A stretch of 64,000 nucleotides of DNA from an uncultured Gammaproteobacteria bacterium (GTDB lineage Bacteria; Patescibacteriota; Patescibacteriia; Magasanikbacterales; UBA922). This document shows, piece by piece, positions 32,285 through 35,200 of this stretch; position 1 is the first letter of the stretch; each line of letters opens with the position of its first letter. The notes beneath the pieces are model-generated. The model was not told the origin of the DNA, made no database searches, and saw only the letters and a program-made list of their open reading frames with translations. The translations under genes were made by a program, and so were the position numbers. The stretch spans positions 102,546 through 166,545 of the forward strand of contig CAYMVY010000001.1 of NCBI GenBank assembly GCA_964394405.1, given 5' to 3'.

Positions 32285-35200
32285 ACAACTCTGTGTTTCT
32301 GTAGTGCTCGATATATTAGTACGCCTTGGCTATTCACCTAGCGCCTATCAACGTCATAGTCTCTGACGAATCTCAAACGAATATTAATCTTAAGAATAGC
32401 TTCGCGCTTAGATGCTTTCAGCGCTTATCTATGCCGAACTTAGCTACCCAGCAATGCGTGGCGCACAACTGGCACACCAGAGGTTCGTTCTTTCCGGTCC
32501 TCTCGTACTAGGAAAGAGTTCTCTCAATATTCAGCGCCCACAGTAGATAGGAGACCGAACTGTCTCACGACGTTCTGAACCCAGCTCGCGTACCGCTTTA
32601 ATTGGCGAACAGCCAAACCCTTGGGACCTTCTCCAGCCCCAGGATGCGATGAGCCGACATCGTACATGATTCCATACTTTCGTATGGGGTAGACTATATC
32701 TTCTTCTTGTCCTGGATCGTAGCTATTTCTACTCACTGTAGAAACGTGCATAATCTCAGTTTGACTTGATCAAGAGTCGGCGTATTACCTGTGACATATA
32801 GTCACAAGTCTCCCCTTTCGGGTCAGTCGTTACGGGGTCATCCCGACGTATTGTCGGGAGACTTCCCACGGTATTGCCGGGTGACTTTTGTCACTGACGG
32901 TTTCACCGTTATAAGCCGATATTTATTCTCACTATCTAATTTAATAATTTCGACGAAAAAATTTGGGAAAACAATCGCTTGTTATGCACCCCGATATGTT
33001 TAGGTGCCAAACCGCGCCGTCGCTATGGACGCTTGGGCGCGATCAGCCTGTTATCCCCAGAGTAGCTTTTATCCGTTGAGCTTCCACCATCCTATATTGA
33101 ATGGTCGGATCACTAACTTCCACTTTCGTGACTGCTCGGGTGGTAGCCCTTGCAGTAAAGCCGACTTTTGCGTTTGCACGTCCAGTCCGATTTCCATCCG
33201 GACTAAGTCGACCTTTGTAAACGCCTCCGTTATGATTTGGGAGGCAACCGCCCCAGTTAAACTACCCACCAGACACTGTCTCCCACACCCGATTCAGGGC
33301 ATAAGATTAGGGACATCGCATTACAAGGGTGGTATCTCACTGACGCCCGAAGGCTCCCACCTATGCTGAACAAGTAAAACAATGTACCAATGTCAAGTTG
33401 TAGTAAAGCTTCATGGGGTCTTTTCGTCTAACTGCGGGTACGTCGCATCTTCACGACACTTGCATTTTCGCCGAGGACATGGTCAAGACAGTCTCCACAT
33501 CGTTATGCCATTCGTGCGGGTCGGAACTCACCCGACAAGGAATTTCGCTACCTTAGGACGGTTATAGTTACCGCCGGCGTTCATCAGCGCTTCGGCTCAA
33601 GGCTTCGCATTGCTGCTAACCCCTCCCCTTAACGTTCTGACACTGGCCAGGCATCACCCCCTATACATCCTCTTACGAGTTCGCAGGGAGCTGTGTTTTT
33701 GATAAACAGTCGCATGGAGTCTTTTGTTGACCTGCTCTTACGAGCAGGAGGCCTTATCCCGAAGTTACGGCCGCTTTTTTGCCTAGTTCCTTAACCATGT
33801 TTCTCTCGTTCGCCTTGGTCTTCTCGACCTACACACCTGTGTCGGTTTACGGTACAGTTTGATATTGCCTAACGTTGTGCTACTTTTCTAGGCACCCTTC
33901 AAGCTTGAATTGACCTTGCCCGGAGGCTCAGTCTTTCCCTTGCGGGACGTACATTACCTGAATACGCTCAAACCGTATAAGATGCGCATAGCGCAACAAA
34001 CAATACCAAGTGCAGGAATATTAACCTGCTCTTCCATCGGCTACGCCTCCTTGCGAAGGCCTCACCTTAGGATTGACTAACCCAGGGACGATTCTCGTGG
34101 CCCTGGAAACCTTGTGTTTTCGGCGTGAAGGACTCTCACCTTCATTATTGCTACTTGTGCCTGCATTCTCTCTTCTGAACGCTCCACCAAACCTCGCGGT
34201 TCAGCTTCGCAGCTGTTCAGAATGCTCCTCTACCACTAGACTAGCGTAAACGCTAGTATAATCCGCAGTTTCGGTATAACACTTAGCCCCGGTACATTTT
34301 CGGCGCGGAGACTCTTGACCAGTGAGCTATTACGCTTTCTTTAAAAGATGGCTGCTTCTAAGCCAACTTCCTGGTTGTTTGAGAATCAACACCACCTTTT
34401 ACACTTAGTGTTAATTTAGGGACCTTAAATGGCGGTCTGGGCTGTTTCCCTTTAGACTATGAAGCTTAGCCCCCACAGTCTGACTTGTGTATTCTTATAA
34501 CTTTGGCATTCGGAGTTTGATTGAGATTAGTACGGTAAACCGCCTAAGAATCATCCAGTGCTCTACCACCAAAGCAAACATACACAGCTAGCCCTAAAGC
34601 TATTTCGAGGAGAACCAGCTATTACCGAGTTCGATAAGAATTTCTCTCCTATCCACAGATCATCCCCATGTGTTGCACAGCATGTGGGTTCGGTCCTCCC
34701 TTCGACTCTCGTCGAAGTTCAACCTGTCCATGGATTGCTCACCCGGCTTCGGGTCTACTGTATGCGACTTAACGCCCGTTAAGACTCGCTTTCGCTACGC
34801 CTCCAGACAGTTTGACGTGTCCTTAAGCTCGCCACACACAGTAACTCGCAGGCTCATTCTTCAATAGGAACGCTGTTACCCATATATCAAAAAGATATAG
34901 GGCTCCAACTCATTGTAAGCGCACGGTTTCAGGATCTATTTCACCGCCCTTCCGGGCTACTTTTCACCTTTCCCTCGCGGTACTGGTTCACTATCGATCA
35001 CTGTTAATATTTAGTCTTATCGCATAGTCGCGACAGATTCAGACGGAATTTCACGTGTTCCGCCCTACTCAGGAATACAACACCACGTAGATTGCTATAT
35101 TTCGCATACGGGACTATCACCCGCTATGGTTCTCCTTTCCAGGAGTATTCTGCTATATATAATCTAGTCGTAGCCGACATCACAGGTAGTCGACGCTGTA

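Follow-up and report, generated by a model that had tools for sequence, protein, structure and literature searches.

A probable group I intron with a terminal adenosine in place of omega-G at site L2500 of a bacterial 23S rRNA gene

The 64,000-nucleotide (nt) stretch of DNA studied here (contig CAYMVY010000001.1 of assembly GCA_964394405.1, hereafter the window) carries on its minus strand a 23S rRNA gene, followed by a 5S rRNA gene (Table 1). In a global alignment with Escherichia coli rrlH (locus L001), the 23S gene is interrupted by 339 nt between the positions that correspond to U2500 and C2501, that is, within the strand of domain V that forms part of the peptidyl-transferase centre (PTC). 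The insert is flanked by GGUUUGGCACCU on the 5' side and CGAUGUCGGCUCAUC on the 3' side. The base that follows the 5' junction is A and that following the 3' junction is C, while the bases preceding the two junctions are U and A, respectively. Since the junction bases differ, the boundaries of the insert cannot be shifted; they are also exact relative to 12 intron-less alleles with identical exon flanks. An earlier reading of the letters alone, made with no database search (the sequence-only reading), had placed an interruption of about 339 nt on the rRNA sense strand at 32663-33001, and the alignment returned identical coordinates. The longest open reading frames (ORFs) inside the insert have 37 amino acids in the sense direction and 70 in the antisense direction, so that the description of the insert as ORF-less holds as well. 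We present evidence herein that this insert is probably a group I intron with the architecture of subgroup IA and no ORF, and that it is probably spliced with a terminal A replacing the terminal guanosine (omega-G) in the second step.

Table 1. Coordinates of the intron, its structural elements, and the rRNA genes in the window (MFE, minimum free energy; A1, alignment of 31 ORF-less relatives)
Feature	Coordinates	Strand	Basis or remark
Group I intron, 339 nt, site L2500	33001..32663	minus	E. coli alignment, RF00028, covariation, MFE z-score
P1 5' strand (last six nt of exon 1, GCACCU)	33002..33007	minus	pairs with GGGUGC, 32986..32991
Internal guide: AUCG (P10 5' strand) followed directly by GGGUGC (P1 3' strand)	32992..32995 and 32986..32991	minus	
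P2 hairpin, AACAA-GCGA-UUGUU	32970..32983	minus	GNRA loop; compensatory changes at 4/5 pairs
AU-rich peripheral spacer between P2 and P3, P2.1-like	32920..32969	minus	A1 columns 49-124
P3 5' strand, UCGGC	32915..32919	minus	partner GCCGA, 32777..32781; 100% paired, 3 covarying pairs
P4-P5-P5a-P4'-P6-P6a domain	32834..32909	minus	covariation, helices 5-8
P7 5' strand (R element)	32824..32830	minus	3' strand, 32691..32696
P7.1 (CCC-GAAA-GGG) and P7.2 hairpins, between P7 and P3'	32787..32822	minus	9/9 pairs covary
P8, long branched hairpin	32706..32774	minus	covariation at 5/6 pairs, MFE fold
S element GAAGAUAUAGUCUA, including P7 3' strand	32690..32703	minus	
P9 hairpin, CCAUAC-GAAA-GUAUGG	32672..32687	minus	5/6 pairs covary
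Last intron nucleotide, A where omega-G is expected	32663	minus	E. coli alignment, conservation in relatives
P10 3' strand (first four nt of exon 2, CGAU; C2501-U2504)	32659..32662	minus	
23S rRNA gene, host of the intron	32297..35639	minus	Rfam RF02541, 2339 bits; alignment to E. coli rrlH
5S rRNA gene	32115..32221		Rfam RF00001, 78.9 bits

In a local scan, the insert matched the Rfam group I intron model RF00028 over model positions 1-253 (its full length), with a score of 40.7 bits and an E value of 4e-9. The score falls below the gathering threshold, and for that reason a default scan of the whole window was silent on the intron. The alignment to RF00028 counts 39 nt between P7 and P3' (the P7.1/P7.2 region) as an insertion. 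Group II families were absent from the Rfam matches of both the window scan and the local scan of the insert.

Independent support for a group I fold comes from comparative data. Thirty-one ORF-less relatives that share the 3' end of the window's intron were collected in one alignment (A1), from which RNAalifold derived P1, P2, P3, P4, P5/P5a, P6/P6a, P7.1, P7.2, P8, and P9. The P7 pseudoknot and P10 were added by hand, and a further helix proposed near the 3' end (GAUAU.GU/AC.AUGUC) was dropped, as it is invariant and competes with P7. The resulting consensus comprises 70 pairs in 13 helices, and 95.5% of its cells are paired in A1; with the 3' partners slid by 1-3 columns as controls, 35-41% were paired. 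Compensatory double changes occur at 41 of the 70 pairs, and the observed pairing values were matched by none of 500 shuffles. The window's own copy makes 68 of the 70 consensus pairs. Moreover, nine compensatory double changes separate it from the intron of L013, a close relative with 96% identity in the 23S exons, a sign that the fold has remained under selection in the immediate lineage. Folding of the single sequence by MFE gave a z-score of -5.56 and recovered P2 to P9.

All parts of the conserved core (P3-P8, with the P4-P6 and P3-P7-P8 domains, the P, Q, R, and S elements, and the P3/P7 pseudoknot) are present. The motif GAAGATATAGTCTA, which the sequence-only reading had taken for a near-consensus S element, occurs once in the window (32690..32703, minus strand; 0.04 chance matches expected), and the P7 3' strand within it is paired. 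Likewise, its candidate R element corresponds to an R-like sequence, GUAACGACUG, at about 32824..32833, which supplies the P7 5' strand. In this helix, G32828 is the G of the guanosine-binding site and pairs with C32692, a pair that is invariant (31/31); C32829 is bulged, and the top pair covaries (AU in 27 sequences, GC in four). The Rfam match, albeit one below the gathering score, and the covariation of 13 helices thus bear out the earlier assignment to a group I-like intron: the observation is confirmed and its interpretation supported.

The helices that would bring together the splice sites are also conserved. P1 is paired in 31/31 sequences, and the U.G wobble made by U2500 (33002) at the 5' splice site is invariant. 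P10 (AUCG/CGAU) is 100% paired, and in five sequences a C-to-U change to a wobble keeps the pairing. As to the first intron nucleotide (33001), it is A in the window, U in 29/30 of the aligned relatives, and C in 1/30; in the relatives, a pair between this nucleotide and the guide G that also takes part in P10 could lengthen P1 (RNAalifold pair 13-26), with no obvious effect. GNRA tetraloops cap P2, P7.1, and P9 (L2, L7.1, and L9). The spacer between P2 and P3 (A1 columns 49-124) is gapped in seven relatives (L026, L029, L036, L075, L096, L106, and L113) and is therefore optional. The loop of P6a is the location of a homing endonuclease ORF in relatives.

The two hairpins P7.1 and P7.2 between P7 and P3' give the intron a subgroup IA architecture; it was reportedly by such extra hairpins that Michel and Westhof defined this subgroup in 1990. 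Hairpins of the same kind lie between P7 and P3' in the introns of phage T4 td, phage Twort orf142-I2, and cyanobacterial L2593 (PMC1995217), and those of the L2593 and Twort introns wrap around the guanosine pocket (PMC1995217). A short P5, as well as P2 and P9 hairpins capped by GNRA loops, are further features in common. Unlike the window's intron, however, these three introns end in G and occupy other sites or genes.

The last nucleotide of a group I intron is a guanosine, omega-G, and it is this nucleotide that fills the G-binding site during exon ligation. The window's intron ends in GGAAUCAUGUA, followed directly by CGAUG of exon 2, and its last nucleotide is A (32663). Of the splice-site mapping through omega-G that the sequence-only reading had suggested, both sites could be located exactly, but omega-G itself is absent. 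The terminal A is invariant in A1, while the bases that precede it vary, the last three nucleotides being GUA, AUA, or ACA, plus AAA in a partial locus.

To survey the site, GTDB species-representative genomes were scanned for an S element followed by exon 2 (pattern AGATATAGTC N15-45 CGATGTCGGCTC). At least 120 loci or species match, and all but two are 23S genes with an interruption at the identical position, so that the sequence-only reading was right to place the insert near a hotspot for 23S introns. Counting the window together with the matches listed (121 sequences), exon 2 is preceded by G in 75 cases, by A in 44, and by T in two. Both T cases are chance matches to the pattern; A thus terminates 44 of 119 L2500 introns among the matches listed. 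The A-ending introns are clearly homologous to one another, and about a dozen of those among the matches listed lack a G in the several nucleotides next to the junction.

Two other registers that would restore a terminal G were considered and rejected. Placing the 3' splice site after the G at position -3 leaves a 2-nt UA insertion in the PTC. Combining this 3' site with a 5' site after C2498 converts C2499/U2500 into UA, and also puts a C-G pair instead of U.G at the cleavage site. Moreover, neither register works for those relatives whose introns end in AUA, ACA, or AAA and lack a G close by. A compensating change in the G-binding pocket, from G-C to A-U as in engineered ribozymes that accept adenosine, was found in none of the A-ending relatives examined. 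The J6/7-P7 sequence CCCCGUAACGACUGACC occurs in A-ending and G-ending introns alike, and the G-C pair of the pocket is invariant.

When the cores were placed in a crude neighbour-joining tree, the window's intron fell inside a clade of 22 sequences that all end in A, with the remaining A-ending introns dispersed between those ending in G. This suggests several switches between A and G (gains or losses), whose number such a crude tree is too unreliable to give. When the submitter labels of the matches listed were tallied by hand, the A form was found in 30 metagenome-assembled genomes (MAGs) labelled as belonging to the candidate phyla radiation (CPR; Patescibacteria) and in 13 that are unlabelled or doubtfully labelled, and in no others. 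In the same tally, all 17 MAGs with a clear label of a non-CPR phylum have omega-G. The terminal A is a conserved trait of the sublineage.

How such an intron would be removed can be outlined from the established chemistry of the family, from which we infer self-splicing, its kinetics, and any need for a cofactor. The internal guide (5'-AUCG-GGGUGC-3') would pair with the end of exon 1 (GCACCU) to form P1, in which a U.G wobble marks the cleavage site, and P10 would arise from pairing of this guide with the first nucleotides of exon 2 (CGAU). Held at the G-C pair of P7, an exogenous guanosine would attack after U2500, and the freed 3'-OH of U2500 would then attack the 3' splice site, giving joined exons and a normal 23S rRNA. 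In this second step, the terminal A would stand in for omega-G at the G-binding site. Given that the terminal A is conserved in the sublineage, the choice of the 3' splice site probably leans on P10 and the compact IA core.

Several points weigh against splicing of this kind. Omega-G is near-universal and needed for exon ligation, and here it is missing; the G-binding pair remains G-C, with no compensation for the terminal A; and in the Tetrahymena ribozyme, work ascribed to Michel et al. (1989) and to Been and Perrotta (1991) is said to lead one to expect poor ligation from a terminal A combined with a G-C pocket. In addition, the 40.7 bits scored against RF00028 are short of the 50-bit gathering score, and the case for splicing comes from DNA sequence. 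On the other hand, P10 is useful only for ligation and is nonetheless conserved, including the C-to-U change that keeps its pair, which argues that ligation happens. The location of the site points the same way, since it falls in the PTC of a 23S gene that is probably the host's only copy. Insertions in CPR rRNA genes have also been reported to be removed from transcripts (PMC11270868).

Among the other explanations, the one that survives best, although an unlikely one, is that the group I fold needs a host or intron-encoded protein (maturase, helicase, or chaperone) as a cofactor, chiefly for the second step with the terminal A. A non-canonical omega would fit such a dependence, and relatives of the intron encode LAGLIDADG proteins, some of which are maturases in other systems (PMC11270868). 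The window's intron, however, has no LAGLIDADG gene, and because its copy has no ORF, any protein cofactor would have to act in trans. Furthermore, its core is complete (68 of the 70 pairs are intact, and L2, L7.1, and L9 are GNRA loops), and self-splicing is seen in IA introns that carry P7.1/P7.2, td and Twort among them. It is a little less probable still that the ribozyme carries out only the first step, or hydrolysis at the 3' site, and that the terminal A blocks ligation, leaving 23S rRNA as two base-paired fragments. The terminal A combined with an unchanged G-binding pair speaks for this explanation, and fragmentation of bacterial 23S rRNA at the sites of intervening sequences (IVSs) is known (background in PMC11270868). 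Here, however, the break would sit inside the PTC strand, and the conservation of P10 through a change that preserves its wobble would be hard to account for, as this helix matters only for ligation. The Coxiella intron Cbu.L1917, which also has no omega-G, is moreover described as self-splicing in the title of its report.

That the insert is instead retained in mature 23S rRNA as an expansion seems very improbable. The unspliced L1931 intron of Simkania, judging by a title in the reference list of PMC11270868, would be a precedent, and the host is known from DNA alone; however, 339 extra nt at U2500/C2501 in the core of the PTC should be incompatible with function, P1 and P10, which are relevant only to splicing, are conserved, and the removal of CPR insertions from transcripts (PMC11270868) speaks against retention too. 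An RNase III-processed IVS or a chance insertion, to which only the Rfam score below the gathering threshold could be said to point, has a negligible chance of being correct and is already contradicted by the RF00028 match and by a complete group I core with covariation support, as well as by the location of the site in invariant sequence at 2500/2501 and by the homing endonuclease genes of relatives. An IVS, by contrast, takes the place of a variable helix tip (H9, H25, or H45) and makes a long stem that RNase III cuts.

We return to an intron that is spliced with its terminal A. Its closest known counterparts are the 23S group I introns of CPR bacteria, which lie in domain V near the PTC and, like those at L2500, come in ORF-less and LAGLIDADG-bearing versions at the same site in CPR-like hosts (Tsurumaki et al. 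2024, PMC11270868). That survey, which searched for introns with the Rfam model applied here but relaxed its threshold, counted 968 insertions in 23S genes, of which 433 are group I introns and 222 of these have no annotated ORF; the insertions cluster around the PTC (PMC11270868). The remark of the sequence-only reading that CPR rRNA genes harbour such insertions is thus in line with the published record. The text and supplement of the survey give neither the exact positions of its sites 23IS9-11 nor a position 2500 or a terminal nucleotide (PMC11270868). Our own search of the literature, whose coverage was incomplete, found no text on L2500, on site 2500, or on an A-ending intron there. Brown and colleagues are said to have been the first, in 2015, to note group I introns in CPR 23S genes.

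Introns with omega-G occupy the same site in Omnitrophota, Actinomycetes, Acidobacteriota, Chloroflexi, Planctomycetes, and a Coxiella endosymbiont (L004, L008, L022, L025, L032, L041, and others). They have the site, the guide, the J6/7-P7 sequence (CCCCGTAACGACTGACC), and the S element in common with the window's intron, and some of them carry the same LAGLIDADG_2 ORF as its longer relatives, but all end in G, unlike the window's.

For a missing omega-G, the only precedent, as far as we can presume, is Cbu.L1917 of Coxiella burnetii. According to its title, a paper by Raghavan et al. (2007; J Bacteriol 189:6572; cited in PMC11270868) reportedly describes this intron as one that self-splices and "lacks the canonical omegaG". 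Like the window's, it is a group I intron of a bacterial 23S gene without omega-G; unlike the window's, it sits at L1917 and is confined to one genus, whereas A-ending L2500 introns span dozens of CPR species. Cbu.L1917 has been assigned to subgroup IB2, and a LAGLIDADG sequence has been attributed to it (PMC11019260). A side observation concerns the same genus. In the Coxiella endosymbiont of Ornithodoros amblus (L025; NZ_VFIV01000003.1, 5323..6293), an intron after U1917 is followed by a 14-nt exon (AACGGTCCTAAGGT) and by a second intron after U1931. The latter ends in GATTATA, followed by AGCGAAATTCC, and hence in A, provided that the mature rRNA conforms to the consensus. In the same 23S gene, the L2500 intron, 832 nt long and with no ORF of at least 120 amino acids, ends in G. 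Natural omega-A introns may thus exceed the single published case among bacterial 23S introns.

The intron itself is of a routine kind, common in CPR 23S genes, and its sole unusual property is the conserved, lineage-wide terminal A. Omega-G belongs to exon ligation as textbooks describe it; in the present introns, dozens of species keep a natural A instead, at a position where errors in splicing should be lethal. We consider it possible, though somewhat short of an even prospect, that the terminal A is a selected, working replacement of omega-G in L2500 IA introns restricted to CPR. If so, either the IA core accepts adenosine at the binding site, or the choice of the 3' splice site uses P10 and the periphery. 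The introns would then offer a natural and phylogenetically broad system for testing how strict the omega-G requirement is, and it could be asked whether slow ligation paces ribosome production in slow-growing symbionts. Sister introns with omega-A and omega-G at one site provide ribozyme biochemists with a ready comparative set, by which the tolerance of the second step for adenosine and any physiological role of the terminal A could be tested. The terminal A is worth a bench test, even though a precedent in a single genus already exists.

Relatives of the intron shed light on its origin. In those of about 800-900 nt, an ORF of about 190-230 amino acids begins within the P6 loop and continues across P6', J6/7, and P7. 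Two such ORFs match Pfam PF03161 (LAGLIDADG_2) with E values of 1e-42 and 4e-40, and the nearest solved structure is that of I-SceI. A search of ORFs on both strands found no homing endonuclease gene in the window's intron, which is an ORF-less derivative of mobile introns with a LAGLIDADG_2 gene in the P6 loop. Its 37-amino-acid sense ORF (MGSLPTIRRDDPVTTDPKGETCDY..., 32756..32869, minus strand) spans P6', J6/7, P7, and P7.1, and is read (..DPVTTDPKGET..) in the frame of the C-terminal tail of LAGLIDADG_2 in long relatives (for example L006, ...HDPVTTDPKGKT). This common frame may be a relic of the endonuclease or may simply reflect conservation of the core sequence.

Twelve metagenome contigs (L122-L133), which a search for the spliced junction brought up, contain intron-less L2500 alleles with exon flanks identical to those of the window. 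Some members of the wider lineage thus have the intron and others do not, a polymorphism that would be expected if the intron homes. The 23S sequences of these contigs are only 76-93% identical to the window's, and their use as evidence of splicing in the window's organism was rejected. In two of them (L125 and L126), the alignment breaks at query position 2742/2743, which suggests a separate insertion further 3', in domain V or VI.

The 23S gene that hosts the intron is 3343 nt long, against 2925 positions in the Rfam model of the bacterial large subunit (LSU) rRNA; in annotation, the mature 23S rRNA is to be read as 3004 nt, with the intron taken out. Its exons are 96% identical to those of L034 and L013 and 89% to those of L051 (all TPA MAGs), 81-89% to those of three Candidatus Magasanikbacteria MAGs (L108, L048, and L095), 83% to those of L011 (Paceibacter), about 73% to those of the Coxiella endosymbiont (L025), and about 66% to E. 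coli. A CPR context is plausible, because the exons are closer to Candidatus Magasanikbacteria than to the Coxiella endosymbiont or E. coli. Host placement was based on 23S similarity, the submitter labels of the closest loci being treated as unreliable, and with moderate confidence we take the host to be a CPR bacterium near Magasanikbacteria. The label "uncultured Gammaproteobacteria" of L034, L013, and L051 is at odds with the 23S identities. More generally, the TPA "binchicken" labels of L013, L034, L051, L090, L015, and L075 read uncultured Gammaproteobacteria, Polynucleobacter, or Nitrososphaerota, while their 23S genes are CPR-like by similarity, so that the taxonomy in these titles is untrustworthy; Nitrososphaerota on a bacterial 23S gene is an implausible label within the same submission series.

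No match to small subunit (SSU) rRNA was returned by Rfam within the 64-kb window, and the 23S-5S pair therefore stands here without a linked 16S gene, as had been noticed from the sequence; it is an unlinked rRNA locus. Genes with housekeeping functions (znuABC, lgt, pnp, uvrA, gyrB, and rodA) lie in the neighbourhood, and the GC content is about 41%. The region upstream of the 23S gene (35640..38347) contains neither a 16S gene nor a spacer tRNA. It includes about 960 nt with short ORFs only, one of them of 92 amino acids (36091..36369), an ORF of 300 amino acids with no Pfam match, a gene for a DUF6498 protein, and a tRNA-Leu gene (38263..38347).

Finally, domain I of the 23S gene (35175..35407, minus strand) has two expansions at hairpin tips relative to E. 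coli and to the Rfam LSU model: one of about 70 nt in a small hairpin near model position 228, and one of about 90-120 nt in the next hairpin. The region matched no RNA family except LSU, and both expansions look like expansion segments or IVS-type insertions rather than introns.

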